The position numbers and the translations under genes are program-made. 64,000 bases of DNA from Verrucomicrobiota bacterium (lineage in GTDB: Bacteria; Verrucomicrobiota; Kiritimatiellia; CAIVKH01): NCBI GenBank assembly GCA_024233345.1, contig JACKPT010000011.1:71516-135515 (forward strand). Direction: 5' to 3'. The notes beneath the pieces were generated by a model that saw nothing but the letters and a program-made list of their open reading frames with translations, ran no database searches and was not told the origin of the DNA. Shown here piece after piece: positions 1,798 through 62,749 of the stretch (within the stretch, counting starts at the first letter, position 1; each line of letters opens with the position of its first letter).

Positions 1798-2598
1798 CTA
1801 GAAGGAAAAGCCAGCGCGGGCACCGAGTCTCAGCCATTCGGATTCCGGTTGAAAGAAGAGTCCGCTGGCATCCAGGTCGGACTCGCCGAAATGCAGGTAG
1901 TCGAGGGTCAGGGCCAGGTCCCACCGGTCGTTTCGCCTTCCGATCACCAGGGACAACCCGGGTTCCTTTTCCGGTTCGAGGGAGATGGCGTTGGCGCCCA
2001 CCAATCCGAGATTATCCACATCTTCATCATTGGACAGCGGCAGGATCAGGAATGCCTGTCCGTACCAATCGGCATAGTCATTGAAAACGATGGCTTCGAG
2101 GCCGCCGCGCAGGTAGATCGTGGTCCAGGTTTCGTCATAGCCATAGTCTCCTCCCTGGTCCAGCTCCCGCACCCAACGGTGGAAGCCAATTCCCAGAGCC
2201 GGTTGTGCGGATGCCTTGGCTGACGCGGGGAGCACCGGAAAAATCAAGGTGGCATCGCCGGATACGCCAAGGTATCCGGTCTCCCCATCATAGGGTTCCG
2301 ATGTTCCATCGGCATCAAATACCGCACCATCGTAGTTGACCACACCACCAAATAGTTCGAGCTTGGCATCCAGAATCATGGCGGTGGAAAGGTCATGACG
2401 GAGCTGTATGCCCGCCCCCCACAGCGGGCCGTCCTCGCTAACCAGACGATCACCGTCGACGGTCTCCTCCCACGACAGGTAGGAGATTGTGGCAAAGGGT
2501 CGAAACTCGGCCGCCCTGACCGAATGAAGCGCCCCCATGAACATGAGGGTCAGCATCCATGAAAGCGGACGCGAAGGGATGAATCGCTGGTTGCGCAT
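1798..2598 (-). CDS. putative outer-membrane beta-barrel protein (uncharacterised)
   Basis: 266 aa. N-terminal signal-like segment WMLTLMFMGALHSVRAAE. Alternating hydrophobic pattern and Gly/aromatic-rich sequence. C-terminal ...GARAGFSF ends in Phe, as in many OMP barrels. Only 6 nt downstream of the M23 gene. Confidence 0.5.
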   Translation of the reverse strand: MRNQRFIPSRPLSWMLTLMFMGALHSVRAAEFRPFATISYLSWEETVDGDRLVSEDGPLWGAGIQLRHDLSTAMILDAKLELFGGVVNYDGAVFDADGTSEPYDGETGYLGVSGDATLIFPVLPASAKASAQPALGIGFHRWVRELDQGGDYGYDETWTTIYLRGGLEAIVFNDYADWYGQAFLILPLSNDEDVDNLGLVGANAISLEPEKEPGLSLVIGRRNDRWDLALTLDYLHFGESDLDASGLFFQPESEWLRLGARAGFSF

Positions 2599-2604
2599 GA
2601 TAGA

Positions 2605-3261
2605 TTACCTCCTGGAGAACGGGATGAAATGTACCAGTAAACGATAGGGATCATAGGGCCGTCCCTCTTCATTGAACACCTCAAAGTGCAGGTGCGGGGC
2701 TACCGCCATCCACCGGCGGGCGTCCGCACTGGCGCTGGTGGTTCCCATGGTTCCAATGGATTGACCGGCGCTTATCCACTGACCGGGCATGACGGTAATG
2801 GCATCCAGATGGGCATACAGGGTAAAGAAGACCCGTCCGGAAATCGGCCAGATATGTTCGATGATGACATGACGTCCAAGAATGCTTTGGTCGGGTAATG
2901 TCGTCACCTCGGATACCCGGCCCTCGGTAACGGCAGCCACTGAATCCACGGGAAACACCCCGGGGACAGAGATGGGAATGTCGGTGCCGTTACGGCAGTC
3001 GGTCATAACGACATCAATGATCTGGCCGGTCGGACGGGTTTCCCAGGCCGCGATATCGCATCCATGATGAAAGCGGCGCCCGCAATCACGGGTCCACCCG
3101 GGCAACCCATAGAGCGGATTCCACAGGGTGCGGGCGGTGTAGCGATCAGGCGCGGTATGGAGATCGGTGCGCAGGGTAGGCCAGTGCCATGGGCATCCCT
3201 CCTCGGACGGGGGCGATAGGAACGTGGTGTTGGCAATCGATCGTGTGGGAGGCGCGTTCAT
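2605..3261 (-). CDS. M23-family (LytM-like) metallopeptidase
   Basis: 218 aa with HHGCDIA (HxxxD) and LYAHLD...APHLHFEV (HxH) motifs. ATGA overlap with the upstream gene at 3258-3261. Confidence 0.75.
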   Translation of the reverse strand: MNAPPTRSIANTTFLSPPSEEGCPWHWPTLRTDLHTAPDRYTARTLWNPLYGLPGWTRDCGRRFHHGCDIAAWETRPTGQIIDVVMTDCRNGTDIPISVPGVFPVDSVAAVTEGRVSEVTTLPDQSILGRHVIIEHIWPISGRVFFTLYAHLDAITVMPGQWISAGQSIGTMGTTSASADARRWMAVAPHLHFEVFNEEGRPYDPYRLLVHFIPFSRR

Positions 3262-4751
3262 GGTTGAGGGGAGCGGGACTCGCGCAGCCGCAGGGCCGCC
3301 GACTGCCGTAGTTGCATCAGGGGGGGCAGCCCGGTGCGTTCTCGCAATTGTGGGTCATTCATGCGCGGATCCATGTAGGTGGACCAGAGCTGGACTGCGA
3401 GCTGCTCAAATCCCGCCGCCCGACGGGCATCCCCGGCCTGGGCCCACAGGAGACTCTGGAGCAGGGTTCCTTCCACCACCGAAGTTGCCTCCTCCTGGGT
3501 CATCTGTTCGACTCTCCCCGCGAATAGATGCAGAACCACCTGATCGAGCGACGAGGTTTGATCCACCGTGGGATCAAAGCGTCGCAGTTCATCCAGCATC
3601 GACTGCGCCTTGGTTTGCTCCTGGTAGGTATAGAGAATGAACACGGCGTCCCAGAGGAAATTGCGATATCCATCCCGAAGGCTGGGGTTCTCGCTCTCGG
3701 CCATGGCCTCCCGGTACCCCTGAAGGACATAGGGCAGCACATCGAGATTCGGTGAGAGCAGAAACAGGGAGTGATCGGGATTCTGGACCAGTCGCCCCCG
3801 CCGAAATGCCTCCTGCAGGGATTGGAAGATCATTCGCCGGGAGGAAACCTGCTCATAGGTATCGCGAGCAACCTGACGGGCGCGGTAGGCCCAGTAGAGC
3901 GAATGGGAAGTGGGCAACCGCCAGTCTTGGGGTCCATAGGTGTCCTCAATCTTCTCCATGGTTTCCGGGGAGAGCGCGAAGACCCGCTCGAACGTTTCCC
4001 GCTTCATAAACGCACTGTAGACCGGCCATGCGGGATCCAAACGCAGTTCTCTTGGGGCTGTGTCATGGACCTGGGACCAGCGCCATGGATCCATATCCGC
4101 AGCCCGGAGACGATCCAGCAGGGAGGCCATTCCCTTCACCTGTTGGAGAGCCTCCCGGTTGGGCGGCAATGCTTTCCAACGCTGGAAATCGGGTCTGGCT
4201 CCCGAAAGCAATGGTTCCAACGATTCGGCCAGGGCGCGTTTGTAGTAGAGGTGTGCGTCGTCGAGCGTGCCGGCAATTTTGTGTTGATAGAGCCAGCCGA
4301 GTTCCAGCAGGAGGCGGGCATCGCCGGGATTGTAGCGGATACCTTCATTGCGCAGGAGCTCGATGCCATGCTGAACCCACCGCCATCGATCCTCCGGAGC
4401 CGGGAACATGACGCTGATATTGTAGGCCAGATTCCACGCCTGGTAGGCCCACACTTCGGTAAACCGTGGCTCCAACTTGGTGATCCAGTCCGCAAGTTGG
4501 ACCAGTTCGAAGTACCGGCCCTCCTCCTGAAGCTTGGAGGACCGCAGCCACAGAAGATCGGCAATGATGCCACGAAATCCCCCGAGGGTTACGGTGGTGA
4601 AGGCGACCAGCGGCGGGGCATTTTCCACCGGGTCCGCCTGGGTGATGCCCTGCTCACGGCGGACATCCAGGAGGTGTAGGTTCAGCCTTCCGGCCCCGAA
4701 AAGACAGGACAAGCCGAGCCCATAGAGCAGGATGGTATAGAGCCGTTTCAT
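3258..4751 (-). CDS. uncharacterised membrane-anchored, helix-rich protein
   Basis: The ORF track gives 3258-4817. I prefer the ATG at 4751 (MKRLYTILLYGLGLSCLFGAG...) because it forms an ATGA overlap with the permease stop at 4748. One N-terminal hydrophobic anchor, then a Trp/Leu-rich helical sequence (LLWLRSSKLQEEGRYFELVQLADWITKLEPRFTEVWAYQAWNLAYNISV). No motif I can name. Confidence 0.6.
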   Translation of the reverse strand: MKRLYTILLYGLGLSCLFGAGRLNLHLLDVRREQGITQADPVENAPPLVAFTTVTLGGFRGIIADLLWLRSSKLQEEGRYFELVQLADWITKLEPRFTEVWAYQAWNLAYNISVMFPAPEDRWRWVQHGIELLRNEGIRYNPGDARLLLELGWLYQHKIAGTLDDAHLYYKRALAESLEPLLSGARPDFQRWKALPPNREALQQVKGMASLLDRLRAADMDPWRWSQVHDTAPRELRLDPAWPVYSAFMKRETFERVFALSPETMEKIEDTYGPQDWRLPTSHSLYWAYRARQVARDTYEQVSSRRMIFQSLQEAFRRGRLVQNPDHSLFLLSPNLDVLPYVLQGYREAMAESENPSLRDGYRNFLWDAVFILYTYQEQTKAQSMLDELRRFDPTVDQTSSLDQVVLHLFAGRVEQMTQEEATSVVEGTLLQSLLWAQAGDARRAAGFEQLAVQLWSTYMDPRMNDPQLRERTGLPPLMQLRQSAALRLRESRSPQP

Positions 4752-6118
4752 TGTCCGGGCAGGCCGATCTCTTTGCGGGATAGGGCGAAGCTCGTCACCA
4801 GGGCGAGCAGACCACACAGGCCCACGCCCTGGATCAGCACCGCATCGATCAGCCAGCGGGTGGAGATCAACCGACCCAGCGCGAGTGCTTGCAGGGGGTC
4901 ATGCCCGGTCATTGGTTGTACCAAGGCCGCGAGAATCCGGTAGATCCCGGTGAGCAGGTAGGTACCCCAGGATCCGGCCGCTTCCGGTTGGTCGCTCCAG
5001 GGGGTGGCCACCACCCGGTTGGCCATGCCCTGGATGTACCCGGCGGTGCGTATCATGATCATCAGGTAGAGGGAGAGGAAAGCGGCGACCGGGAAGGAAA
5101 ACAATGTGCCGGCGGTCAGACCTGCTGCTATGAAAAATCCGAGTTGTCCAAGCATGAGAACGAGGCTTCGGGCGAGATTCCAGGGAAAGTCAGCGGCGGG
5201 TATCTGGAGGATCAGTCCATCGGCCGGGTGGAAAATCACCGTCACCGGCCGATCACCGCTGTTGATGTACTCGAGGGTGATCTGATCCCGTCCGGCCAGT
5301 AGTTCCGGGGGTAGGTCGATCTGATTGACTGCGGTGGGAATGCCCTCCTGCTCGATGTCCATCAATGCGGTACCGTTTGTATCACGGAGGATCCATCGAC
5401 CGGGAATGGGCTCAGCCCCCACGTTGGAGGATGACATGCGGTAGACCAGGCGCGGAGAAAGATCGGTTCGGGAAGCTGGGGGCAGGGGCAGGTTCCATTG
5501 TCGGACTCCGGATCGGCTGACCGCATTTCGTTCCAACTGCAATTGCTGAATCAATTCCCGCAATCGCTGATCGGGGGAAACATCCCCAGGAACCTGCTGA
5601 GCTGCGATTTCCTCGCGAAGGCGGTTTCGTGCTTCAGGCAATACCGACGGTTCATCCGGTTGAACCTCCCGGTGAACATACAACAGATCGCGCACCGAGA
5701 CGGTCTGACCGGAGGCCTCGATTTCCCGGTCCAATCGATGCCACAGCAAGGCGGTGGAGATGCTGCTGCAGATCACCAGCAGGGACCCGTGGAGCAAAAA
5801 GATGCCCAACCACTTGCCCAGCCAGATCGAAAGGGAGCGGACCGGCTTGGTGACCACAAGGTGAAGGGTGCGTGATTCGATCTCCCCGGCCACTGCGGCG
5901 CATCCGCTCCATAACCCGGACAAACTGAGAATCCCGAACGACAAACCAAGGGCATAGCGAAGCATAATCTGAATGGTGCCCTGCATTGTTCCATCCGACC
6001 GGATCGTCATGGGTAGAAACACAATGATCGCTAGCAGCATCGCGAATAGAGACAGCACGACCCGGGAACGAAACGCGGAACGGATGGCAATACCGGCAAT
6101 GGCCAGGACAGACTTCAT
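4748..6118 (-). CDS. ABC-2-type transporter permease with a large extracytoplasmic insert
   Basis: 456 aa, multiple hydrophobic segments. The motif AGEIESRTLHLVVTKPVRSLSIWLGKWLG is typical of NosY/GldF-like ABC-2 permeases. About 170 aa of hydrophilic insert. ATGA overlap with the ATPase gene. Confidence 0.7.
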   Translation of the reverse strand: MKSVLAIAGIAIRSAFRSRVVLSLFAMLLAIIVFLPMTIRSDGTMQGTIQIMLRYALGLSFGILSLSGLWSGCAAVAGEIESRTLHLVVTKPVRSLSIWLGKWLGIFLLHGSLLVICSSISTALLWHRLDREIEASGQTVSVRDLLYVHREVQPDEPSVLPEARNRLREEIAAQQVPGDVSPDQRLRELIQQLQLERNAVSRSGVRQWNLPLPPASRTDLSPRLVYRMSSSNVGAEPIPGRWILRDTNGTALMDIEQEGIPTAVNQIDLPPELLAGRDQITLEYINSGDRPVTVIFHPADGLILQIPAADFPWNLARSLVLMLGQLGFFIAAGLTAGTLFSFPVAAFLSLYLMIMIRTAGYIQGMANRVVATPWSDQPEAAGSWGTYLLTGIYRILAALVQPMTGHDPLQALALGRLISTRWLIDAVLIQGVGLCGLLALVTSFALSRKEIGLPGQ

Positions 6119-7152
6119 GGCGTATCGGAACCGGAATCATCCGGCGCAGCTTGCTTATCCACCGGGGCGAGCAGCGCGGTCAGCCGGGCATCAACCTCGG
6201 AGCGGGAAACCGGCCCGGTCGGGGTGGGGGGCTCCTGGGGACGGGCGAGATATTCCGCGACACCATGATCGGCGCCAACCCCGCTGGCATCCGTTTCCGC
6301 GTTACGCGCCTTTTCCACGACATCGAGGAAAATCTGCTCGAGATCCCGGCGCGGATGATCGACCAGGGGCGGCGTACCGGATTCCTGCTCCACCCGGGTC
6401 TGGATGGCCTCGATGCTGGCGAGGTCATAACCCTCCGGGAAGGTCATACGGTAACGGCCGGTTTCCTCGAGCAATGCATCGAGCGTCCCCATGGCCCGGA
6501 TGCGTCCATTGTACAGAATCGCGACCCGATCACAGAGGTCTTCGACATCCGCGAGGAGATGGGAGGTCATGAGAATGGTTTTACCGCGCCGGGCCAGAGT
6601 CAGAAGCAGATCCTTCATCTGACGGCAACCCAGTGGATCAAGACCGGATGTTGGTTCATCCAGAATAATCAGGTCCGGATCGTTGATCAGAGCCTGCGCG
6701 ACCCCGATGCGCCGGGTCATTCCTTTGGAAAATTCGCCCACAATCCGATTGCGGGCCTGTTGGAGCCCGATCATATCGAGCAACTGGGCGATGCGCCGAC
6801 TGCGCTCAGCCCGGTTGAGATCAAACAGGCGACCATAAAAATCGAGGGTCTCCCATGAGGTGAGATAGGGGTAGATGTAGGAGTTTTCCGGCAGGTAGCC
6901 CAGGCGTTTCTTGACCTGCACATCGCTGGGGGATTTGCCCAACACCGCAATCCGTCCGCGGGAGGGATGCAACAGGCCCAGCAAGAGTTTGATGGTGGTG
7001 CTCTTGCCGGACCCGTTGGGACCGAGCAGTCCAAAGATTTCCCCTCGCCGGACCTCGAAGTCGACATCCCGGACCGCAGTCACTCGAGGCCGGTGCCAGA
7101 AATCGCGGAATACCTTGGTCAGTTGCTGAACCTGGATCAGGGGCTCGGTCAT
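6115..7152 (-). CDS. ABC transporter ATP-binding protein (with ~100-aa C-terminal extension)
   Basis: Walker A GPNGSGKST, signature-like FSKGMTRR, Walker B LIILDEPTSGLD, H-loop TSH. 345 aa. Confidence 0.9.
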   Translation of the reverse strand: MTEPLIQVQQLTKVFRDFWHRPRVTAVRDVDFEVRRGEIFGLLGPNGSGKSTTIKLLLGLLHPSRGRIAVLGKSPSDVQVKKRLGYLPENSYIYPYLTSWETLDFYGRLFDLNRAERSRRIAQLLDMIGLQQARNRIVGEFSKGMTRRIGVAQALINDPDLIILDEPTSGLDPLGCRQMKDLLLTLARRGKTILMTSHLLADVEDLCDRVAILYNGRIRAMGTLDALLEETGRYRMTFPEGYDLASIEAIQTRVEQESGTPPLVDHPRRDLEQIFLDVVEKARNAETDASGVGADHGVAEYLARPQEPPTPTGPVSRSEVDARLTALLAPVDKQAAPDDSGSDTP

Positions 7153-9059
7153 GGGGTCTTTTCCGTTTGTGCGTGTTCGATCCGGATAAGTCGTGCGCTG
7201 TTGAAAACGACGATCAGCGAACCCAGGTTGTGGGCAATGGCTGCAGGGACCGGGGGGAGCCAGCTAATTCCGGAGAGGATCAGCCCCCCGAGAATGAAGA
7301 GGCCGGCAACGGCAAGGTTCTGATAAACCGCAGCCCGGGCATCACGCGAGAGGCGGATCAAGTAGGGTATGCGCATCAGATCATTATTCATCAGGGCCAC
7401 GGTGGCGCTGTGGATCGCGATATCATTGCCGGCCGCCCCCATGGCAATGCCCAGATCCCCAGCGGCAAGGGCCGGGGCATCGTTGACACCGTCGCCGATA
7501 AACGCGGTGCGGTATCCTTGGGCGTGGATGTGGCGAACATAGTCCACCTTTTGGGCGGGGAGACATTCGGCTTGCACTTCCGGGCAGCCGATGCGGTCGG
7601 CAATCATTCGGGTCACCACTTCCCGGTCCCCTGAAATCATGGCAATCTTCCGGATATTCAAATCCACCAGGCCGCGCAATGCCGGAGCCGCTTCGGGCCG
7701 CACCTGGTCTTCCAGACCAATCCAGCCCACATACTGTCCATCCTTCGCCACAAACAATGTGCTGTAGACCGCGCTGTCTCCGGATTCAGCGGCATCAAGC
7801 CGGGGATCCTGGATGCCCAATTCACGGAGCCAACTGGCCCGACCGCATTGGACAAGGGATCCGGCGACCTGGGCGGTAACACCCCGGCCCGCCGTCTCTT
7901 CCATGGACTCCGGATCGCCCAGAAGAAGGCCGGTTTGCTCGGCAAGTTTGCGCAATGCGACGGCCACGGGATGTTTGCTGAATTTCTCCGCAGTGCCAGA
8001 CCATTCCAGAAGATCCGATGGGGAGATGTCCGCCACGGGGGCAAGCCGGGCCACACCGAGTTCACCCAGGGTCAGGGTACCGGTCTTATCAAAAATCACC
8101 GCATTGATCCGCGCGGCGCCTTCGAGGTCAGAGACATTCTTTACCAGGATTCCATTGCGGGCGGCCGCCGCGAGGGCTGCAACCATGGCCGTCGGGGTTG
8201 CGAGAATCAGGGCACAGGGACAGGAGACCACCAGCATTGCGATGACCCGGTTCCAATCGCCGGTAAAGAACCATACTGCGGCGGCGAGGGTCAGCACCAC
8301 GGGTATGTAATAGCGAAGATACTGGTCGATGATGCGGGTAATGGGGAGTTTGGTCTGTTCTGCGGCCAGGATCAGTTCGCGCACTTTACCGAGGGCGGTT
8401 TCTTCGCCGATGCGACTGACCCGGACCTCGACCGCTCCGGTCAGGTTCTGGGTTCCGGCAAAGACCTGATCCCCGGGGCCTTTGTCCCGCGGAATGGACT
8501 CCCCGGTGATGGTCGCTTCATTCAGGGTGGTCTGGCCGAGGATCAGTTCGCCATCGGCCGGGACCGAGTCACCGGGGAGGAGGCGGATTCGATCCCCCAC
8601 CACCAATGCCGAGGCGGGTATTTCCTCCGATTTCCCGGCGGGCAGAATTCTCCTGGCCATGGCCGGGGTCAGGCGAATCAGGGCCTCAATCGCTCCATGG
8701 GCGCCTTTTGCGGTCTGGGTTTCGATGACCAGGGCAAGCAGCATGAAAAACGCTACGATCCCCGCAGTGCGAAAGTCTCCAAGTGCGAGCGCGGAGAGGA
8801 CCGCAATGGCGACTGGCGCATCCATGTGGAGCTCTCCCCGGAACAGATCCCGCACCGCCGACCACACGATGGGTGCCGCCAGCAGCAGGGCCCCGATCAC
8901 CGCGCTGATCTCCGCAGCCATCGGGTTGTCGGGGTAAAGAAGATCGCCCGCGTACGCAGCGATGACGAAGGCGGAACCGGTGAACAGCCAGCTCAGCCGA
9001 CCGGAACGGTCGGCGTGATCGCAGCATCCAATGGCGTGACTGTGGGATTCCGCTTTCAT
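7149..9059 (-). CDS. heavy-metal-translocating P1B-type ATPase (Zn/Cd/Co-like)
   Basis: 636 aa. TGES, CPC (VSCPCALILATP), DKTGTLT and GDGVNDAP motifs. No ferredoxin-like HMA domain, but a His/Cys-rich N-terminus (HSHAIGCCDHAD). Confidence 0.9.
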   Translation of the reverse strand: MKAESHSHAIGCCDHADRSGRLSWLFTGSAFVIAAYAGDLLYPDNPMAAEISAVIGALLLAAPIVWSAVRDLFRGELHMDAPVAIAVLSALALGDFRTAGIVAFFMLLALVIETQTAKGAHGAIEALIRLTPAMARRILPAGKSEEIPASALVVGDRIRLLPGDSVPADGELILGQTTLNEATITGESIPRDKGPGDQVFAGTQNLTGAVEVRVSRIGEETALGKVRELILAAEQTKLPITRIIDQYLRYYIPVVLTLAAAVWFFTGDWNRVIAMLVVSCPCALILATPTAMVAALAAAARNGILVKNVSDLEGAARINAVIFDKTGTLTLGELGVARLAPVADISPSDLLEWSGTAEKFSKHPVAVALRKLAEQTGLLLGDPESMEETAGRGVTAQVAGSLVQCGRASWLRELGIQDPRLDAAESGDSAVYSTLFVAKDGQYVGWIGLEDQVRPEAAPALRGLVDLNIRKIAMISGDREVVTRMIADRIGCPEVQAECLPAQKVDYVRHIHAQGYRTAFIGDGVNDAPALAAGDLGIAMGAAGNDIAIHSATVALMNNDLMRIPYLIRLSRDARAAVYQNLAVAGLFILGGLILSGISWLPPVPAAIAHNLGSLIVVFNSARLIRIEHAQTEKTP

Positions 9060-9063
9060 GGCA

Positions 9064-10122
9064 TTAGTGACCTGAGTATCCGGAGGGGGAAGATGGGGTG
9101 GCCTTGGGTTTCCCGATCTGGATGCGCAACTCGCGTCGTCCGCCAGGGTCAGCAGGAATCAAGTACCGCTGTTCCGCCTGCTGCAAAGCTGCCTGGATGG
9201 CATCTTCGCGCAACATGCCAAGGATCGTGTCCGGGTCGCCGGAGATGCTTTCTCTGATCCGGGTAAAGGTGTTGGCATCCGCATTCAGTTCATTGAGCAT
9301 GCGTTCTTTCTCGGCTTGTCCTTCAGCGCGCAGGCGGTCGGCATCACCAGCCGCTTCATTACGGGCTCGCGTTGCATAGGCCCGGGCTTCGCTGATTTGC
9401 TGGGACTGATCCTGCTCGGCGTCGATCACGTCGTTGAAGGCCAGCAGCACCTGACGTGGTGGGATAGTCGCGGTGAGATCCACACCTTCCACCGTGATCC
9501 CAAGGTTGAGCTGGGGCAGTCGCGCGCGCAGTTCCGCCTCCACGGTGGCTCGGAACTCATCCATCTTCGTGCGTAAGGCATCGTCGATCCTGGTCGCTGC
9601 GGATGCGCGGACGATGGCCCGATCGAGTTCCCGGCGAAGCAGGGCATCGGGATCGATGTGGGACAGGGCATAGGCCTTGAGATCCTGCACCCGGTACCGC
9701 AGGGTCCAGGCGGAATGAAAAATATTTGCATCGGCGGAGACACTATAGCCATCCCGCCCCGGGACAAGGGGTTGCCGCTCGTCGATAGCCATGAGGTTGG
9801 TGTCGATCCCGGTGCGCTGGTACCAGAAGGTGTCGGTTCCGAGATCTCGAATGCGCTCGGCGGGGAACCGGAGAATTTCCGAGAACGGGGTCGGCCAGGT
9901 CCAGTGGAATCCCGGTTCGAGTATTTGGTTTCCAGCCATGCCCCGCGCCTTGCCCAAAACCAGGACCATGGCCTTCTCCTGTTGGCGCACAATGAAGAAT
10001 CCACTGCCAAGGTAGGCCACAACGAGCGCGAACAAGACCCATCGCAGGAGCCGGAAACTCTGCTCGAGCGCCTGCGCGAGGGCCTTCTGACCGATCGTCT
10101 GGGTGGAGTCGGTTTCGTTCAT
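9064..10122 (-). CDS. SPFH/band-7 protein, HflK-like
   Basis: 352 aa. N-terminal TM (WVLFALVVAYLGSGFFIV), then an SPFH core (EPGFHWTWPTPFSEILRFP...GITVEGVDLTATIPPRQVLLAFNDVIDAEQ) and a coiled-coil tail. Confidence 0.8.
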   Translation of the reverse strand: MNETDSTQTIGQKALAQALEQSFRLLRWVLFALVVAYLGSGFFIVRQQEKAMVLVLGKARGMAGNQILEPGFHWTWPTPFSEILRFPAERIRDLGTDTFWYQRTGIDTNLMAIDERQPLVPGRDGYSVSADANIFHSAWTLRYRVQDLKAYALSHIDPDALLRRELDRAIVRASAATRIDDALRTKMDEFRATVEAELRARLPQLNLGITVEGVDLTATIPPRQVLLAFNDVIDAEQDQSQQISEARAYATRARNEAAGDADRLRAEGQAEKERMLNELNADANTFTRIRESISGDPDTILGMLREDAIQAALQQAEQRYLIPADPGGRRELRIQIGKPKATPSSPSGYSGH

Positions 10123-11003
10123 GGTTGGGGAGGCGGGTTCAATAGATCAAACGGAGCCCGATCTGTGCCGAGAATCACCGTCGCCTGCTCGGACAGGGTA
10201 TCCCGGAGAACATCCAGTTTTTTGAGGAAGATTGCCAGTTCGGGATCCTCGGAAAAGACGGTATAATAGGCGACCGCAGCGGCATCGCCTTCGGCGCGGA
10301 TGCGCTTGGCATCGGCTTCGGCCGTGGACAGGATGCGATCGGCTTCACTGTCCGCCTCGGCGCGGATGCGAATGGCTTCTCCCTCGCCCTCCGATCGATA
10401 GCGTTCGGCGAGTTCCTGCCGCTCGGCCCTCATTCGATCAAACACCGAAAGGGTAATGGCCTGGGGAAGTCCGATCCGCCGTATGCCCACAAAGCCGACA
10501 TCAATCCCGTACCGGTCGGCAGCCTGGGGCTGAATCCCCTGCAACACATCGGCCTCAATACGGTCCAGTCGCAGGGCTGATGCCGAGGTGTTGACCAGGT
10601 TGGAAAAGGCTACCCGTCCAATCGCCGAATTCTTGTAGGTATCCAACAGGCCGGAAAGGTTCAGTTCGGCGAGCTCGGTGCTGCCCTGTCGTTCGAGGAA
10701 CTTGGTCGGTTCGGATATCCGCCATCCGCAATACATGGACACAATCACATTCTTGCCATCGGCGGTCAGGGTTTCCGAGAGCGCGCTCTCCATGACCCGG
10801 GTGCGCCCATCAAACCGGAAGACCGACTGAATCGGCCATGGCCACCGCGAATAGAGGCCGGGGGTTTGCAGGTCCCGCACCGGTTTGCCGAAGGTGGTGA
10901 CAACGGCGACCTCGCCTTCCCGTACCACAAATAAAAATTGGGTCATCAACAGGATTCCGAGGATCAGTAATCCGACCAGAATCATGGGAATCTGCTTGTT
11001 CAT
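10119..11003 (-). CDS. SPFH/band-7 protein, HflC-like
   Basis: 294 aa. TM (MILVGLLILGILLMTQFLF), then VVREGEVAVVTTFGKPVRDLQTPGLYSRWPWPIQSV...GIDVGFVGIRRIGLPQAI and an Ala/Glu/Arg-rich coiled coil. ATGA overlaps on both sides. Confidence 0.85.
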   Translation of the reverse strand: MNKQIPMILVGLLILGILLMTQFLFVVREGEVAVVTTFGKPVRDLQTPGLYSRWPWPIQSVFRFDGRTRVMESALSETLTADGKNVIVSMYCGWRISEPTKFLERQGSTELAELNLSGLLDTYKNSAIGRVAFSNLVNTSASALRLDRIEADVLQGIQPQAADRYGIDVGFVGIRRIGLPQAITLSVFDRMRAERQELAERYRSEGEGEAIRIRAEADSEADRILSTAEADAKRIRAEGDAAAVAYYTVFSEDPELAIFLKKLDVLRDTLSEQATVILGTDRAPFDLLNPPPQP

Positions 11004-12856
11004 GGATTTATTCCTTCCGGTTCAAGGGGAACCATCTCAAAAACGCTGGTAAAGGGATCATCCTCCAGGTTGAGCCAGAGAACTTCTGATGACGCCGACG
11101 GGGTGGCGAGCAACACCAGCCGGTTGCCGATCAATCCCGCGTGGAGAGCTTCCATGGCCAGCCGGGCCCGATATACATCCGGGGCGGTATCGGCGGCCCG
11201 CTTCCGGTTATGGAATTGCGCAACTTCGGCCTCTGATAACTTGGTGCGCCGATCGCGATAGGCCTCGGCGAGGCTGACCCGGGCGGTGGCATCGGCGGTG
11301 GCGAGGGGAAGGATCCGATTGGTATAGGCGCGGGCTTCCAGGATAGCCGCTTCCTTTTCCTCCAGTGCCCCTACCACGGACTGGAATGCATCGGCGACCT
11401 GGATCGGGGGATGCAGGCCCTGCAGCCCGATGAAATCGATCTTCACCCCCAGGGCAAGCCGGTTACACTCCGCCTGAAGTTCGCGGTGTATGATGTCCGC
11501 AATTTCCGTGCGGTGCGAACTGAGCCATTCGCCGATATCTCTTGAGGATAACTCGCGGGTCAGTATCCGGTAGGCGGTATCGCGGAGTACCTGGTTGGGA
11601 TTTGCATAGCGATAGGCGTAATCCAGTGCATTGGTGATGGAAAACTCGAGCGGAAGATGCAGGCTGATCAGGTTGATGGGCACCGCACTGCTTCCCTTGT
11701 GGCTCAAACTGGCCGTGACGAACAGGTCTTCGCCGGGGAAGTGCGGCACCGTCCACAGGATTTGTGGGGGGCGCAGCAAGGTGTCATCGACGTCAACCCC
11801 GAGATGGGTTAGCAGCGCCATCCGGGCCGGAACCCGGCGAACCGCCTCAAATGGCCAGGGCCATTTCCAGTGGAAGCCGGACATGAGCAGAGGGTCCGGT
11901 TGCACCGGCTTGCCGAACCGCTCTTTGATTCCCACATCATTGGGCCCGATGATGGCCATGCTGGAAAGGGCATAAATGACGAGTATTTGAAAACCCGCGA
12001 AGGGCAACAGCGCCCGTCGAAGAAACCGGGCAAACCAGGTGCGGGAAATTGAAAACCCGAACTGGTAGTCGACAGACTCGGAAAGGGGCTTGGTCCATTC
12101 CGATGGATGAATCAGCCAGGCCCCGAGTTTGGTTTCGTAGCTTGTGGCCTTCTGGGTGTCCCGGTGGGGACTGTAGATACTCAACAAGCTGTTCCAGACC
12201 AGTTCCACCGTATGCACAACCAGCAGCACCACCAGGGTCATGCCGATCCACGCATCTGCCTGGACCAGCCCCACATGATGGGCAAGGCAGGCGAGGGCGG
12301 CGGCTACCGACCCATAGGCGGTGACTCCGGTCATCACTCCGGGCCCCCGCAACCAGCGCAGCGACGGCTCCCCGGCAAGACCGAGCAAATAGCGATGGAG
12401 CAGAAACAACACAAAGCCCTGCCCGGCCAGCAAGGCCATCGCGGGCAGGTCGAATGAAGATTCACGGGCGGTCCAAACCAGGTCGCGGTACAAGGTCCAG
12501 GCCCAGGTTGCGGTGAGGATGGCAAGGACCGGAGCGATGAAGGGTACAATGCCTTCGACCTGATGACGGGTGCGGGAGAGGGTCAGAGGGAGATCTCCCC
12601 CGGATGTTTCATCAAACAAACGCGAGTCCGCAGTCGGCGCTTGCCCAGCGAGATCCCTCGCCTCCTCGAAGGCCATCCGTTCCAGACGGAGCCGCAGATA
12701 GACCACGCAAGACTGGATCAGGGCAAGCATCTGAAATGGCATGAGACCGGAGAACACCAGCAGGCCGGAGCGGGAGCCCATGGCGCTGGACGCCGCGATG
12801 GACAAGACCATCAGGCCTGCGGAGACCAGAGCCGCTCTTTCCCCGGTCCGGGTCAT
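11000..12856 (-). CDS. polytopic membrane domain (~330 aa) fused to an HflK-like SPFH domain
   Basis: The ORF track gives 11000-12925. The ATG at 12856 (MTRTGERAAL...) forms an ATGA overlap with the upstream stop at 12853. About seven hydrophobic segments by eye, then IKERFGKPVQPDPLLMSGFHWKWPWPFEAV...GVKIDFIGLQGLHPPIQVADAFQSVVGALEEKEA. Confidence 0.75.
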   Translation of the reverse strand: MTRTGERAALVSAGLMVLSIAASSAMGSRSGLLVFSGLMPFQMLALIQSCVVYLRLRLERMAFEEARDLAGQAPTADSRLFDETSGGDLPLTLSRTRHQVEGIVPFIAPVLAILTATWAWTLYRDLVWTARESSFDLPAMALLAGQGFVLFLLHRYLLGLAGEPSLRWLRGPGVMTGVTAYGSVAAALACLAHHVGLVQADAWIGMTLVVLLVVHTVELVWNSLLSIYSPHRDTQKATSYETKLGAWLIHPSEWTKPLSESVDYQFGFSISRTWFARFLRRALLPFAGFQILVIYALSSMAIIGPNDVGIKERFGKPVQPDPLLMSGFHWKWPWPFEAVRRVPARMALLTHLGVDVDDTLLRPPQILWTVPHFPGEDLFVTASLSHKGSSAVPINLISLHLPLEFSITNALDYAYRYANPNQVLRDTAYRILTRELSSRDIGEWLSSHRTEIADIIHRELQAECNRLALGVKIDFIGLQGLHPPIQVADAFQSVVGALEEKEAAILEARAYTNRILPLATADATARVSLAEAYRDRRTKLSEAEVAQFHNRKRAADTAPDVYRARLAMEALHAGLIGNRLVLLATPSASSEVLWLNLEDDPFTSVFEMVPLEPEGINP

Positions 12857-13818
12857 TGATGAACCTCCATCATCCGAAAGCTGGCGATTCCCCACAGCAG
12901 AATACCGATCATATAGAGCCCGCAATAGTGTGCGACCTGGAATACATACGGCCAGGGGATGTCCCCGTGATTGAGCGCATCAACCGCCCAGAAGTTCTGC
13001 CAGTTGGGGATGAGCAGATACAGAAGCCGCAGCGCTTCATTGGTTTGGGCATAGGGACCGAGGAGGTAGTCTGACATCAGGCCGACCATCAGAATCACCG
13101 CGCACATCATCATCGTTCCGGTCAGCCCCAACCGGGTGGAAAGTGCCACCGCAAACGAGCAAAACAGAATCACCGCCAACCCGATGAGAGCCGCAGCGGG
13201 CAGGACCGACCATGGCATGAACGACTCCGCCCCCCCCGACATCTGTCCCGCGCTGCGCCAGAAAACCACTGCAAATGCGAGGACCACGCTGATCAGAACG
13301 TCCCGAAACGCCCCCGAGGTAAAGGGGGAACGGAACAGAAAATTGCGGAGACCGGAAACCGTAAACGCTCCCAGAATACCCAGGTAGAGCGAACCCAGGG
13401 TCCACCAGTCGATTCGATAAAGTACCCGGACCGCATGGATGGCCAGCAGCGAGGCCAGGGTAGCGGCAAAGATGAAGGCCGTCATCACCACGACTATGCC
13501 GAAAAACTTGGCAAGGAAAAACAGGGAGCGGTTCATGGGCTTGGTCACCACCGACGCCAGCGTACCCAGCCGCAATTCCCGGGAAATAGTCGACGCTGCG
13601 CCATAGCAACCCAACAGCAAGCCCGCCATCCAGAAGAGGGCCAGTGAGCTATCGCGGATCATCCGGGTCGCTTCGCCAAGTACATGGGTGATCAACAATG
13701 GGAGTAATCCAATAAACAACAGGGTACTGGCGCTGAGCAACAGAAACGCGGGCTGGCGGGAAGCCTCCAGCGTGGTTTGCCGGGCGACCGTACTGAATTG
13801 CTTGAGGGCAAGACGCAT
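12853..13818 (-). CDS. ABC-2-type permease-like integral membrane protein
   Basis: 321 aa, hydrophobic throughout. The motif STISRELRLGTLASVVTKPMNRSLFFLAKFFG matches the same family as the 456-aa permease. First gene of the long minus-strand operon. Confidence 0.65.
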   Translation of the reverse strand: MRLALKQFSTVARQTTLEASRQPAFLLLSASTLLFIGLLPLLITHVLGEATRMIRDSSLALFWMAGLLLGCYGAASTISRELRLGTLASVVTKPMNRSLFFLAKFFGIVVVMTAFIFAATLASLLAIHAVRVLYRIDWWTLGSLYLGILGAFTVSGLRNFLFRSPFTSGAFRDVLISVVLAFAVVFWRSAGQMSGGAESFMPWSVLPAAALIGLAVILFCSFAVALSTRLGLTGTMMMCAVILMVGLMSDYLLGPYAQTNEALRLLYLLIPNWQNFWAVDALNHGDIPWPYVFQVAHYCGLYMIGILLWGIASFRMMEVHQ

Positions 13819-14019
13819 GAAGTCAAACTACCATATGGACCATCCGTTTTGCCAGTGTAACCCACAGGCAGGCCAGAGTTGGATGGCGATTGTGTGACGA
13901 TATGAAAAATGGAATGGTTCGGCTGAAAGACAGGGTCATGCGGGAAAAATTCATTTTGTGCGGGGGAGGGGACCCGATGTGTGATAGTCTTGCCCAAACG
14001 ATCAACGGAGGAGAGCCTC

Positions 14020-14163
14020 ATGGCCAAACCAAACTATTCCTATGAGAAACGACAACGAGACCTCGCGAAAAAGCGGAAGAAAGAGGAAAAACGCCTGAAA
14101 AAGGCCGGTCAGGCGCCGAATAGCGATTCGAGTACTGCGAATCCATCCGCACCCGGGCTTTGA
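14020..14163 (+). CDS. small Lys/Arg-rich protein (hypothetical)
   Basis: MAKPNYSYEKRQRDLAKKRKKEEKRLKKAG... The ATG at 14020 is preceded by GGAGGAG. The track's longer start at 13981 lacks an RBS. Confidence 0.4.
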   Translation: MAKPNYSYEKRQRDLAKKRKKEEKRLKKAGQAPNSDSSTANPSAPGL

Positions 14164-14268
14164 ACCCCGGCCCGCCCGCCGGGAGCGCCAAAATGTATTT
14201 CAACATAAACGCTTTCAAACCGCTGGTGTTTAGGATAGGGTGCGATTTAATTAAGGAGTGAGTATATT

Positions 14269-14472
14269 ATGAGTAAAGGTACAGTGAAGTGGTTCAATGT
14301 TGAAAAAGGGTTCGGTTTCATTGCTCCGGACAATGGTGGCAAAGATCTGTTTGTTCATCATTCGGAAGTGAAAACCCCCGGCCGGGCGGATCTCGCCGAA
14401 GGCCAGAAAGTCGATTTTGAAGAAGGTGAAGGCCAAAAGGGCCCGTGCGCGAAAAACGTCGTACCTTGCTGA
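14269..14472 (+). CDS. cspA: cold-shock protein (CspA family)
   Basis: [32 protein letters not shown] carries the RNP1/RNP2 motifs. AAGGAG lies upstream. Confidence 0.95.
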
Positions 14473-14485
14473 TGACTGACTTGAA

Positions 14486-14525
14486 CCGGGGGGCAGGCCG
14501 ATAAGCCTACCTCCCGGTTTTTTTT
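14486..14525 (+). terminator. rho-independent terminator after cspA
   Basis: CCGGGGGGCAGG / CCTACCTCCCGG imperfect stem with loop CCGATAAG, followed by a run of eight T. Confidence 0.75.
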
Positions 14526-14798
14526 ATCTGAAAAATTCCCGCCTTTTTACCTGCACGTAATTGCATCGGACAATCCCGATCAAGGGGCAGGTCATCATCC
14601 TGAATGGCTTGTGTTACAACACCCAATGCGGGTGTATTATTGCCACAATAACAACGTCGCATAATATGTATTATGTCTAGCATCGAGCGTTCCATTCCGC
14701 CATTCGTGGTAGCTTGCGGTTGATAGGATGCTCAGGCACCGCAAGGCGTATTGCCATTTACGGATGGCCCTCCGGTCATCACCAGCTGCACGTGCTGT

Positions 14799-16274
14799 TC
14801 ACGAGGATGACTGGTGCAGTTGCCGATAGATCTTCTCGTACTCGGCGGCACTTTGATCCCAAGTATAGTCGCCAGCCATGCCACGATTCTGTAGATCCCG
14901 CCAGGCTTCTGCTTTCCGGTCGAAGCATCGAATCGCGCGCTGAACGGCATCCTGGAATGCCTTTACCGTATAGTCGGAAAAAACGAATCCATTGCCATTG
15001 GTCTGGCTGTTATCCGCATCGGTGACTGTGTCGGCCAGTCCGCCGGTATGATGAACGACCGGAACAGTGCCGTACCGCATGGCGTAGAGCTGATTGAGAC
15101 CGCAGGGTTCATACCGGGATGGCATCAGGTATAGATCCGCCCCGGCAATGATCTGCCGGGCCAACACCCGATCAAATGCATTCATGACCCGGATCCTGCC
15201 TGGCCAATGAGATTGCCATCGCAAGCACATGCCCTCGTATTGGGCATCGCCATCACCCAGTAAAATCAATCCCAGATCCGAATGACTGCCCATCAGGTCG
15301 GGAATCATTTCATCAAGCAAATCAATTCCCTTGTGCTCGGACAAACGGGTCACCATCCCCAACAACGGTCCCCGGTCAGGTATGCTCAACTCCGCCAGCT
15401 TGAGTAAAGCCCTTTTACAGTGTTGCTTGCCGGAAGGGTCTTTGACCGAATAGTTCTTGGCCAGTGCGGAATCGGTCTGTGGATCCCAGGTCTGGGTATC
15501 GATGCCGTTGGTGATGCCGCGCAGGCGATGTCGGGCATCCGAGATCACGCCATGGAGTCCGTAACCAAAAGCCTCGGTTTGAATTTCCTCGGCATAGGTC
15601 TGGCTCACCGTGGTCAGGAAATCGGCGGTATTGATACCACCTTTCAGGCAATTGATGTTTCCATAAAACTCCAGGCATTCAACGGAAAAACAGCCGAAGG
15701 GAAGGTTGCTGTAGGAGTATTCATCACCGGAAAAGATTCCCTGGTAGGCAAGATTGTGGAGCGTCAGCAGGGTCTTTTCCCGCTTGCCCCTCCCCTGCCC
15801 TCGGACACCATGTTGGAGATATAAGGGCATCAATGCGGTTTGCCAGTCATTGCAATGGACCAAAGATACCGGGCGCTCCAGCGCATCGATCAAAGCGACC
15901 GCAGCTTTTTGAAAGAACACAAACCGCTCAAAATTGTCCTCATAATCACGGTAGGATAAATTGTAGAGGTGCGCCCGGTCGAAGAATTCATCCCGGCGAA
16001 TGAAGTACTTGGCGGGTTGGATTTCCGGGGCGGTGCGCCAGACCTCGGCCCGGAATTGATGGAACCCCACCGGGATGTTCAAGACCATCCCGGTTTCCAC
16101 CAGTGGAAAATTTCCCTCGATGACTTGACGATACATGGGCATGATCTGAATCATGGACCAACCACGCCGCGCCATGGCTTCCGGCAGGGAGGCGGAAACT
16201 TCAGCCAACCCCCCGGTCGAGGCAAACGGACTCATCTCGCTGGTAATAAACGCACAATGCCCTTGATCTGCCAT
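14799..16274 (-). CDS. glgA: glycogen synthase
   Basis: 491 aa. N-terminal FITSEMSPFASTGGLAEV, plus the C-terminal GT-B region ...PSRYEPCGLNQLYAMRYGTVPVVHHTGGLADTV. Confidence 0.9.
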   Translation of the reverse strand: MADQGHCAFITSEMSPFASTGGLAEVSASLPEAMARRGWSMIQIMPMYRQVIEGNFPLVETGMVLNIPVGFHQFRAEVWRTAPEIQPAKYFIRRDEFFDRAHLYNLSYRDYEDNFERFVFFQKAAVALIDALERPVSLVHCNDWQTALMPLYLQHGVRGQGRGKREKTLLTLHNLAYQGIFSGDEYSYSNLPFGCFSVECLEFYGNINCLKGGINTADFLTTVSQTYAEEIQTEAFGYGLHGVISDARHRLRGITNGIDTQTWDPQTDSALAKNYSVKDPSGKQHCKRALLKLAELSIPDRGPLLGMVTRLSEHKGIDLLDEMIPDLMGSHSDLGLILLGDGDAQYEGMCLRWQSHWPGRIRVMNAFDRVLARQIIAGADLYLMPSRYEPCGLNQLYAMRYGTVPVVHHTGGLADTVTDADNSQTNGNGFVFSDYTVKAFQDAVQRAIRCFDRKAEAWRDLQNRGMAGDYTWDQSAAEYEKIYRQLHQSSS

Positions 16275-18556: not shown

Positions 18557-19468
18557 CTACCGGATCAGATAGATCAACTTCTGCTCTTCACCCTCCCGCA
18601 CCACATCCAGGACAACAGCTCCCAGACGATCCTTCATAAATTCACTGAGGAAGTACTCCGCCCGGGGTTGACTGGTCATATTCATGGAGTTGACCTTGCG
18701 AATTTCGTCGCCCTCCCTCAGCCCGACTGCGGTGAAGAAGGCCTGCTCTCCGACCGGTTCCAACCGGAACCCCAGAACCTCATTTTCCTCCCCACCCCGC
18801 ACGGCGGTCATGGATTGATAGACCTGGACGATCCGCTCCGGGTCATCGAGCAGTTCCCGGTAGTAGGCCTCGAGCGCTGAGCGCTGCATGACCCAACGGT
18901 TCTCCCCGATACGCTTTCCGAACCGGGTGGTTTCCAAGGGTGCTGGCTCTTCCTCCCCGCTCGCGACCGGCGTGGTGGATTCAGCATCCATGGTATCGGA
19001 ATAGCTCAATCGGATTTCCAATTCATTGCCGCGGTCGCGCACAATGACCCGGTCCCGGTAGATGCGCAGCACCTCCATCTCATCCAGGGTGTCCCCCTCC
19101 TTGACCCAATGCTGGGTGGTGGTTTGCAGGTCATCCAGAATCGCGCTGCGAGCGGTGGGGGCCTGATCGCTTTCCTGATAGAAGAAAGTCCCGGCCAGCC
19201 GGAAGCGTATGGAACGGTCCTGCAGATCCAAGGCCCCGGCTGTCTCGGTAAACTGGAATCGTTCCGACCAGTCGGCCTTGTCGGGAGAGGGGCCGGTTTC
19301 CGGCTCGGTTGGTCTTGGGGCATCCGGTTCGGATTCCGCCGTCGGAGTCGCGGTTTGGGCGTTCAGTCCGATGGCCTTGACCAGGAGGATCGCCCCCGCG
19401 CCGACCACCGCGCTCCACAAAACGAGGGCGGTGACGCGTCCAAAACGTTGGATGGCAAGATCCTTCAT
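18557..19468 (-). CDS. GspC-like protein (TM + HR-type domain + PDZ-like C-terminus)
   Basis: The track ORF (to 19609) runs into the RNase P RNA. I start at ATG 19468 (MKDLAIQRFGRVTALVLWSAVVGAGAILLV). The central segment FRLAGTFFYQ...HWVKEGDTLDEMEVLRIYRDRVIVRDRGNELEIRL and the C-terminal GLREGDEIRKVNSMNM resemble T2SS GspC. No other gsp genes are nearby. Confidence 0.55.
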   Translation of the reverse strand: MKDLAIQRFGRVTALVLWSAVVGAGAILLVKAIGLNAQTATPTAESEPDAPRPTEPETGPSPDKADWSERFQFTETAGALDLQDRSIRFRLAGTFFYQESDQAPTARSAILDDLQTTTQHWVKEGDTLDEMEVLRIYRDRVIVRDRGNELEIRLSYSDTMDAESTTPVASGEEEPAPLETTRFGKRIGENRWVMQRSALEAYYRELLDDPERIVQVYQSMTAVRGGEENEVLGFRLEPVGEQAFFTAVGLREGDEIRKVNSMNMTSQPRAEYFLSEFMKDRLGAVVLDVVREGEEQKLIYLIR

Positions 19469-19519
19469 GGTCTCGCAGGGTAGCGAACCCCTGCTCGCTT
19501 GAAAAGCCCTGAGAAAAAA

Positions 19520-19912
19520 AGTGGCTCGGGAGGTTGTAAGCCGAATTCTGTTCCCCGCAACTGCGAGGCCATGATCATTTATCTCGCTGATGTCAGCATA
19601 TGCGATCAACCCGAAGCTTTCAGCCCGAAGGCAACGAGGCGGGCCGCCTCTCGCTTCCTATTTGATCTTGCTCCAGATAGGGTTTACCTGCGGCGACCCT
19701 TGCGGATCCACCCGGTGGTCTCTTACACCGCCGTTTCACCCTTACCCCGCAGATGCGAGGCGGTATTGTTTCTGTGGCACTAGCCATCAACAGGCTTTTC
19801 GCCTGCCGTTCCCCTCCCCGCTCAAAGGCGGCCCTGGGGATATCCTGCCCTGTGGAGTCCGGACTTTCCTCCCCGCGCGAACGCGAAGCGATCATGCCCC
19901 TCCCGAACCGCC
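19520..19912 (-). ncRNA. rnpB: RNase P RNA, bacterial type A
   Basis: The reverse complement contains GGGGAGGAAAGTCCGGACTCCAC (P4 strand), GGGTAAGGGTGAAACGGCGGTGTAAGAGACCACC and GAACAGAATTCGGCTTAC (second P4 strand). The 5' GGTTCGGGAGG pairs with the 3' CCTCCCGAGCC (P1). Ends are approximate to +/-5 nt. Confidence 0.88.
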
Positions 19913-62672: not shown

Positions 62673-62749
62673 CGGGGCGTGGCTCAGCCTGGTAGAGCGC
62701 TACGTTCGGGACGTAGAAGTCGCTGGTTCAAATCCAGTCGCCCCGACCA
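62673..62749 (+). tRNA. tRNA-Pro (anticodon CGG), CCA encoded
   Basis: Cloverleaf by hand: acceptor CGGGGCG/CGCCCCG, D-arm GCTC-AGCCTGGTA-GAGC, anticodon arm CTACG-TTCGGGA-CGTAG, T-arm GCTGG-TTCAAAT-CCAGT, discriminator A, then CCA. Confidence 0.9.

Follow-up and report, generated by a model that had tools for sequence, protein, structure and literature searches.

The purpose of the cages formed by bacterial SPFH proteins is an open question, and few of these cages have a defined client beyond HflK/HflC–FtsH and QmcA–YbbJ. In the 2009 survey of prokaryotic SPFH operons (Hinderhofer et al., PMC2636767) only links to NfeD and FtsH are given. The locus considered here lies in a DNA stretch of 64,000 nucleotides (the window) from a Verrucomicrobiota bacterium (Kiritimatiellia, CAIVKH01; GenBank assembly GCA_024233345.1, contig JACKPT010000011.1, positions 71,516–135,515, forward strand). 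Three consecutive SPFH genes, SPFH-A, SPFH-B and SPFH-C (the trio), belong here to a larger operon, which comprises an ABC-2-type permease, the trio, a P1B-type heavy-metal ATPase, an ABC transporter ATPase, a second ABC-2-type permease and a conserved protein of 497 amino acids (aa). These eight genes are referred to as the cassette. Probably, the trio provides the scaffold subunits of a cassette conserved in the PVC (Planctomycetes, Verrucomicrobia, Chlamydiae) superphylum, in which the P1B metal ATPase is the working partner, together with the ABC-2 transporter.

The trio is represented by three contiguous minus-strand open reading frames (ORFs) within positions 9064–12856 of the window. 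All three products match Band_7 (PF01145) above the gathering score (E = 3e-15 for SPFH-A, 2e-24 for SPFH-B and 8e-18 for SPFH-C), so the three consecutive SPFH genes reported in the preliminary description of this locus are well founded. SPFH-A (11000–12856, 618 aa from the ATG at 12856) includes an N-terminal domain (N-domain; residues 1–272, 12041..12856) of six transmembrane (TM) helices and a cytoplasmic linker. It is followed by an anchor helix (residues about 274–304), an HflK-like SPFH domain, a coiled coil and a C-terminal tail (11000..12040). The HflC-like SPFH-B (10119..11003, 294 aa) and the HflK-like SPFH-C (9064..10122, 352 aa) each possess a single N-terminal TM helix, which fits the type-II topology (one N-terminal TM helix, then the SPFH body); SPFH-A has the same body after the additional 6-TM domain. 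The bodies of SPFH-C and SPFH-A are 26% identical, and no further SPFH paralogue is present in the 64-kb window.

The earlier assignment of two HflK-like proteins and one HflC-like protein agrees with the best NCBIfam models, which are hflK (TIGR01933), hflC (TIGR01932) and hflK again in the gene order A, B, C. SPFH-B, with 150.7 bits, is above the hflC equivalog cut-off of 134.4; SPFH-A and SPFH-C, with 111 and 125 bits, are below the hflK cut-off of 159.4. About seven hydrophobic segments had been counted in the first protein, and exactly seven are found by the Kyte–Doolittle method (residues 8–26, 34–52, 102–120, 135–158, 174–192, 202–220 and 286–304), being modelled as six TM helices and the anchor. 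The fusion and the polytopic character of the fused domain hold as well; its size was corrected from ~330 aa to about 270–300 aa. The AlphaFold model of SPFH-A (27-sequence alignment, mean pLDDT 80) contains six TM helices, a cytoplasmic linker, the anchor helix, the SPFH domain and, beyond a long coiled coil, a disordered tail. The top Foldseek matches of this model in the PDB are the HflK chains of the HflK/C–FtsH complexes 7vhq, 9cz2 and 7wi3. Since 18 lysine and arginine residues fall in the predicted inside loops and 3 in the outside ones, the topology of SPFH-A is predicted to be N-in, with a periplasmic SPFH body as in HflK. SPFH-A is one of a family of ~620-aa proteins found in Kiritimatiellia, Verrucomicrobiota and Planctomycetota, for which 'protease modulator HflK' is the usual annotation; a protein from a Kiritimatiellia metagenome-assembled genome (MAG) is ~99.7% identical to the window protein (two substitutions).

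All other genes of the cassette are located on the minus strand too. The first one (12853..13818) encodes an ABC-2-type permease of 321 aa and the fifth one (7149..9059) a P1B-type ATPase of 636 aa with the Pfam domains E1-E2_ATPase and Hydrolase; both neighbours of the trio had been named correctly in the preliminary description. The ABC transporter ATPase (6115..7152, 345 aa; ABC_tran, E = 4e-32), the second ABC-2-type permease (4748..6118, 456 aa), for which hydropathy gives a large extracytoplasmic loop, and the 497-aa protein (3258..4751, true start ATG 4751) complete the set. ATGA start/stop overlaps join the permease to SPFH-A, SPFH-A to SPFH-B and SPFH-B to SPFH-C, in accordance with the translational coupling proposed for the trio. 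The same overlap is found at four other junctions (P1B ATPase/ABC ATPase, ABC ATPase/second permease, second permease/497-aa protein and 497-aa protein/M23 peptidase), seven in total, and SPFH-C is separated from the P1B ATPase by a gap of 4 nt.

Conservation of this arrangement was analyzed by scanning one genome per GTDB species for the DYQFGF motif, which is invariant in the N-domain. At least 585 loci were obtained, and the best 80 of them (Kiritimatiellia, Verrucomicrobiota, Lentisphaerae and Omnitrophota) were analyzed with 10-kb flanks; Planctomycetota loci were added separately. Genes were considered present according to tblastn with the window proteins, and loci were considered informative if the contig extends far enough. 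The order permease, SPFH-A, SPFH-B, SPFH-C, P1B ATPase, on the same strand, is common to essentially all informative loci. SPFH-B is present in all 80 loci, SPFH-C in 73 of 74 informative ones. The profile of the trio against its neighbouring genes, suggested in the preliminary description, turned out to be clear: the upstream permease directly precedes SPFH-A in 72 of 74 informative loci, and the P1B ATPase accompanies the trio in 67 of 68. The ABC ATPase follows the P1B gene in 37 of 60 informative loci; if it is present, the second permease is present also (35/36), and the latter is always accompanied by the 497-aa protein (33/33).

In the most distant relatives (23–28% identity; Planctomycetota/Brocadiia) all eight genes are kept, according to independent gene calls. 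The association is also seen from the side of the pump, the best 120 clusters of ATPase homologues being 59–66% identical to the pump of the window. Three ATPase homologues were chosen without reference to SPFH, and all three directly follow a permease and three Band_7 genes.

Fusion of the two partners in one polypeptide provides further support for their coupling. It was first seen in a protein of 1,106 aa (P0099), a weak match in the first search, in which a P-type ATPase is combined with Band_7. With this protein as the query, at least 120 clusters of fusions (90% identity) were obtained, which are 1,080–1,150 aa long and all contain PF00122, PF00702 and PF01145; those with a named organism all belong to Gemmataceae. 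The public annotation of these proteins is only 'Cu+-exporting ATPase' or 'cation-translocating P-type ATPase'. An origin of P0099 as an assembly chimera was rejected because of the number of clusters and because some of them are found on contigs of 8.7 and 9.3 Mb.

In two Gemmataceae loci examined (L084, 10001–15297, and L085, 10001–15265) two Band_7 genes come after the fusion gene, the first HflC-like and the second HflK-like; upstream of it lies a divergently transcribed ABC-2-like permease, with no ABC ATPase adjoining. According to blastp, the SPFH part of the fusion is closer to the body of SPFH-A than to SPFH-C (96 versus 52 bits and 93 versus 75 bits), and the gene after the fusion matches SPFH-B at 140 bits. 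The ATPase part is 35% identical to the pump of the window, CPC and H-x-x-GSL being common to both. The fused pump is followed by a conserved His-rich cytoplasmic linker of ~45 aa (LQRLDLWMEHHLDLHE..HWLEHRWR) and then by the anchor helix. A hidden Markov model (HMM) of the N-domain matched 98 SPFH-A relatives and none of the 120 fusion clusters listed. Judged from the sequences, the fused pump occupies the exact position of the 6-TM N-domain, and the arrangement is topologically consistent.

The gene order fixed over several phyla, the translational coupling and the replacement of the N-domain by the pump argue together that the trio functions with the P1B ATPase as a single physical unit. This unit could be organized as follows. 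According to the homology to HflK/HflC, the HflC-like SPFH-B would pair or alternate with the K-like SPFH-A and SPFH-C, and the trio would build a hetero-oligomeric ring or cage at the periplasmic face of the inner membrane. The 6-TM N-domain of SPFH-A would sit in the enclosed membrane patch and most probably serve there as a tether or dock for the ATPase, since this very position is taken by the ATPase itself in the Gemmataceae fusions. The assembly could confine or regulate the pump by means of the local lipid environment, turnover or hand-over of the exported metal, possibly to the ABC-2 system. Cage formation, contact with the unfused ATPase and an effect on transport are inferred. The idea of an SPFH cage serving a transporter, put forward in the preliminary description, is thus divided: synteny and the Gemmataceae fusion sustain the coupling of the trio to transporters, and the enclosing cage is a matter of homology inference.

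In a more elaborate variant, the three paralogues would form a closed cage, which covers on the periplasmic side a piece of membrane with both the P1B pump and the ABC-2 exporter. Metal pumped out of the cytoplasm would first enter a confined nanocompartment and be passed on from there instead of diffusing freely in the periplasm, and the N-domain would be a degenerate CDF-type module, recycled as a dock and replaced by the pump in Gemmataceae. This variant is speculative and rather doubtful. If true, it would be the first SPFH cage with a hard-wired transporter client instead of a protease or an NfeD protein.

Several points weigh against the trio serving as the scaffold of the pump. Linkage and fusion are functional coupling, not a cage round the pump. 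The best 80 of at least 585 loci are a sample biased to closer relatives, which is offset by the distant loci with all eight genes. In one locus (L023, 14000–21857) the permease and three SPFH genes have no ATPase downstream according to the ORF listing. Another one, from a Brocadiia MAG (L038, 4900–13517), is devoid of detectable SPFH-C and ATPase and has very few long ORFs after SPFH-B; this scarcity of ORFs may result from poor or masked sequence. Finally, SPFH-B exceeds the hflC equivalog threshold, so it could play a role with FtsH encoded elsewhere.

The last point leads to the main rival explanation, according to which SPFH-B and SPFH-C are the housekeeping HflC and HflK of this lineage, caging and modulating an FtsH encoded elsewhere; they would stand in the operon because of co-regulation, or because FtsH exerts quality control on the pump, and not as parts of a transporter cage devoid of protease. 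Besides the score of SPFH-B, the canonical single-TM architecture of SPFH-B and SPFH-C and the fold match of SPFH-A to HflK in FtsH complexes are in line with this explanation. The FtsH signatures HExGHA and GPPGTGKT are absent from the 64-kb window, and FtsH motifs are also missing from all 80 loci with their 10-kb flanks. NfeD is not matched by any gene of the window operon and does not adjoin the trio in eight related loci with gene tables; the only trace is a weak NfeD1b_N/Peptidase_S49 gene in L085, 8 kb off and on the other strand. The lack of an ftsH or nfeD partner noticed at first is therefore real, and regular proximity of the trio to these genes in relatives, which had been named as the observation that would speak against a transporter client, was not found. 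In E. coli ftsH lies apart from hflKC. For this reason, the absence of ftsH nearby is a weak argument, which says little against the housekeeping role, and FtsH could still participate. However, SPFH-A and SPFH-C stay below the hflK cut-off, a third, polytopic paralogue is foreign to canonical HflKC, and strict synteny with the ATPase across phyla, together with covalent fusions, is unexpected for a general protease modulator. A housekeeping function of SPFH-B and SPFH-C is considered unlikely.

Alternatively, the primary client of the trio could be the ABC-2 transporter (the two permeases, the ABC ATPase and the 497-aa protein), with the P1B ATPase as an accessory that supplies or removes metal. 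A permease profile together with a cognate ABC ATPase in the operon, by which ABC-2 exporters are recognized, is found here. The permeases of the window themselves match weakly (ABC2_membrane_4 for the upstream one, ABC2_membrane_2/3 for the second one), and orthologues reach the thresholds: those of the upstream permease match ABC2_membrane_4/2/5, one of them above the gathering score, and precomputed matches to PF12679 exist in three related loci (L082, L083 and L088). The trio stands between one ABC-2 permease gene and the remaining ABC genes, conservation of the upstream permease equals that of the ATPase, and an ABC-2-like permease also adjoins the Gemmataceae fusions. On the other hand, the ABC ATPase, the second permease and the 497-aa gene follow in only 37 of the 60 informative loci, the fusion partner is the P1B ATPase and not a permease, and in Gemmataceae the permease is divergent, with no adjoining ABC ATPase. 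A primary role of the ABC-2 transporter is thus improbable. Both the P1B ATPase and the ABC-2 transporter are carried in the preferred reading, in which the trio is a scaffold for the pump.

The SPFH proteins could also be generic flotillin-like organizers of membrane stress responses or microdomains, co-induced with metal efflux and having no specific contact with the pump. The broad pleiotropic roles ascribed to SPFH proteins of other bacteria in the literature would allow this. Such a function leaves the phylum-spanning gene order, the ATGA coupling and the fusion that replaces the N-domain unexplained, and it is very improbable. Like the ABC-2 transporter as primary client and the ion path considered below, it fits the data on fusion and synteny less well than a trio with the P1B ATPase as its partner.

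The N-domain of SPFH-A had been described as a region that matches no known domain, and searches of sequence families bear this out: no match was found in Pfam, NCBIfam, PHROGs or the PDB sequences (profile versus PDB: noise only, E >= 0.033), and a Pfam scan of the members one by one at E <= 10 returned no recurring family. When 1.84 billion representative proteins were searched with a profile, 1,269 clusters (50% identity) were obtained, with E <= 1e-30 for 694. In the best 150 of these 1,269, nearly all proteins are 600–790 aa long and carry the domain at residues 1–300; the shorter ones look like fragments, and none is without the SPFH body. The N-domain therefore appears to be obligately SPFH-fused. 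Conserved in it are E218 (invariant, intramembrane, TM6), E65 and R170, as well as YESRL and P251...DYQFGF, two cytoplasmic motifs that immediately precede the anchor helix.

When the N-domain alone was modelled by AlphaFold (pLDDT 85, pTM 0.80), the top 23 Foldseek matches in the PDB were all zinc/manganese transporters of the cation diffusion facilitator (CDF) family (ZnT1/3/4/7, SLC30A10 and YiiP), with E values of 0.014–0.2, TM-scores of 0.38–0.58 and a Foldseek probability of about 1. The CDF family is also among the matches of full-length SPFH-A. In this connection, the N-domain itself could be a small transporter or ion path, i.e., a divergent CDF-like cation/proton module, which uses E218 and is gated by the SPFH body, instead of a passive tether. 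Besides the fold matches, the invariant acidic residue in TM6 and the metal-transport context would suit such a function. Yet the Foldseek E values are weak, the Pfam profile Cation_efflux (PF01545) gives E = 2.1 in one of 23 members, and hhalign of the N-domain profile with E. coli YiiP (query sequence 100% identical to 2qfi_A) gives a probability of 1.4%. Moreover, the Gemmataceae fusions dispense with the N-domain. Alignment A1 shows TM2 and TM5, in which the CDF metal site (D/H-x3-D and H/D-x3-D, respectively) is expected, to be devoid of conserved polar residues, E218 being the sole invariant acidic residue within the membrane; this result is based on the alignment and not on structural superposition. 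An ion path formed by the N-domain is quite unlikely. Membership of the N-domain in the CDF family was rejected, as neither sequence-profile support nor the TM2/TM5 metal site is present, and the modelled fold may be said to resemble CDF membrane domains weakly. A regular expression for the CDF signature, applied to 86 records (the window and related loci), revealed no CDF gene.

The P1B ATPase of the cassette is recognized by the NCBIfam models TIGR01525 (509 bits, cut-off 346) and TIGR01512 (Cd family; 428 bits, above the cut-off); the cut-off of TIGR01511 (Cu) is not passed. The motifs FDKTGTLT, CPCA+ILA+P (with CPC in TM4) and H-x-x-G-S in TM6 are conserved in 62 orthologues. The protein has no HMA domain and carries a His/Cys-rich N-terminal tail, with CxxCGHDHEH in many orthologues. 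TM5 contains QN and neither K nor YN, the signatures of CopA and ZntA being absent, and the protein is equidistant from the CopA, sCoaT and ZntA structures (E = 1e-73 to 1e-85). It fits no defined metal subgroup (P1B-1, YN/MxxSS; P1B-2, K/D; P1B-4, SPC/HEGxT), and the public names of its relatives conflict (Cd2+/Zn2+ versus Cu+). In this respect, the cassette ATPase defines an uncharacterised P1B subgroup with CPC, H-x-x-G-S and a His/Cys-rich tail. In one related locus (L086, 1–1848) a CopA-like P1B ATPase with YHS and HMBD domains is encoded about 1.2 kb upstream of the cassette, on the same strand and with one gene between. The cassette pump thus coexists there with a conventional copper pump and is distinct from the housekeeping copper ATPase.

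The N-terminus of the 497-aa protein is hydrophobic, and its body consists mostly of helices. The alignment of this family has a mean column identity of 46%, with many invariant W, R, P and G residues, and neither protein nor profile searches gave a match in Pfam, NCBIfam, PHROGs or the PDB sequences. A gene of an M23 peptidase (218 aa) is ATGA-joined to the end of the cassette, and an ORF of 266 aa follows 6 nt further on (both within 1798–3261, minus strand). No family match was found for the 266-aa ORF (PHROGs included), and tblastn against the 80 related loci matched neither of the two genes; both would seem to have joined the operon only in this lineage.

Rfam scans upstream of the operon revealed no metal riboswitch or other leader, and consensus scans for promoters and terminators at the operon performed no better than shuffles. 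Divergently from the operon (13981–14518, plus strand) a small K/R-rich ORF of 60 aa (13981–14163) and a cspA-type cold-shock gene (14269–14472) are located. The leader and coding region of the latter give a sub-threshold Rfam match to the cspA thermoregulator (24.6 bits versus a gathering score of 78). The window also contains a class A RNase P RNA (19521–19907, minus strand, 218 bits) and a tRNA gene (62673–62746, plus strand); the ORF of 350 aa at 18557–19609, which overlaps with the former, is unlikely to be a real gene. The cumulative GC skew has its maximum at about 12000–16000, the skew being positive leftward and negative rightward. At the same place the genes change from the minus strand (the operon and glycogen synthase) to the plus strand (RNase R at 16307), and the peak could represent a replication-related skew switch or an effect of the strand of transcription.

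No description of a cassette combining SPFH proteins with a P1B ATPase was found in the open-access literature, subscription-only literature being outside the scope of the search. SPFH assemblies that serve a dedicated client are known as such; what is new is the set of three HflK/C-type paralogues hard-wired to a P1B pump, the SPFH-linked 6-TM domain and the natural fusions. The cassette offers a genetically specified client, which makes regulation of a transporter by an SPFH cage directly testable. The label 'protease modulator HflK' carried by SPFH-A in public records is corrected, and attention is drawn to two conserved families that carry no annotation, namely the N-domain and the product of the eighth gene.

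Comparison with the known pumps CopA (3rfu, 7r0g), ZntA (4umv) and sCoaT (7qbz) reveals the same DKTGT, the CPC in TM4 and the A, P and N domains. In contrast to CopA and ZntA, the cassette pump is devoid of HMA and of the signatures YN and MxxSS (CopA) or K and D (ZntA). Its H-x-x-G-S is close to the HEGxT motif of P1B-4, but is combined with CPC. Unlike the known P1B pumps, it is encoded after SPFH genes or fused to them. The membrane domain of CDF transporters (YiiP, ZnT1) shares with the predicted model of the N-domain six TM helices and the location of both termini inside, and provides the best fold matches; the N-domain differs in having no detectable sequence relationship to it and no CDF C-terminal domain, and in being SPFH-fused.

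In the SPFH–NfeD operons (QmcA–YbbJ, 8z5g; stomatin PH1511–PH1510) an SPFH protein of related fold is likewise co-encoded with a dedicated membrane partner, whereas the cassette genes contain no NfeD domain and the SPFH sequences are of the HflK/C type and not of the stomatin type. The eukaryotic stomatin family (e.g., stomatin–aquaporin 1, 9zd2) resembles the cassette in the concept of an SPFH oligomer with a transport protein as its client, and stomatins are among the fold matches. However, stomatin is homo-oligomeric and faces the cytoplasm, with no logic of operon or fusion, while the bacterial cassette is predicted to be hetero-oligomeric and to face the periplasm, and its client is genetically hard-wired. 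The HflK/HflC–FtsH system of E. coli (7vhq, 7wi3, 9cz2) shares with the cassette an adjacent pair of K-like and C-like SPFH proteins with N-in single-pass anchors, a periplasmic body, a coiled coil and a tail. The cassette differs from it by three paralogues instead of two, one of which bears the 6-TM N-domain and two of which stay below the hflK cut-off, and by its conserved and fused partner, which is a P1B ATPase, accompanied by ABC-2 genes, and not an AAA+ protease.

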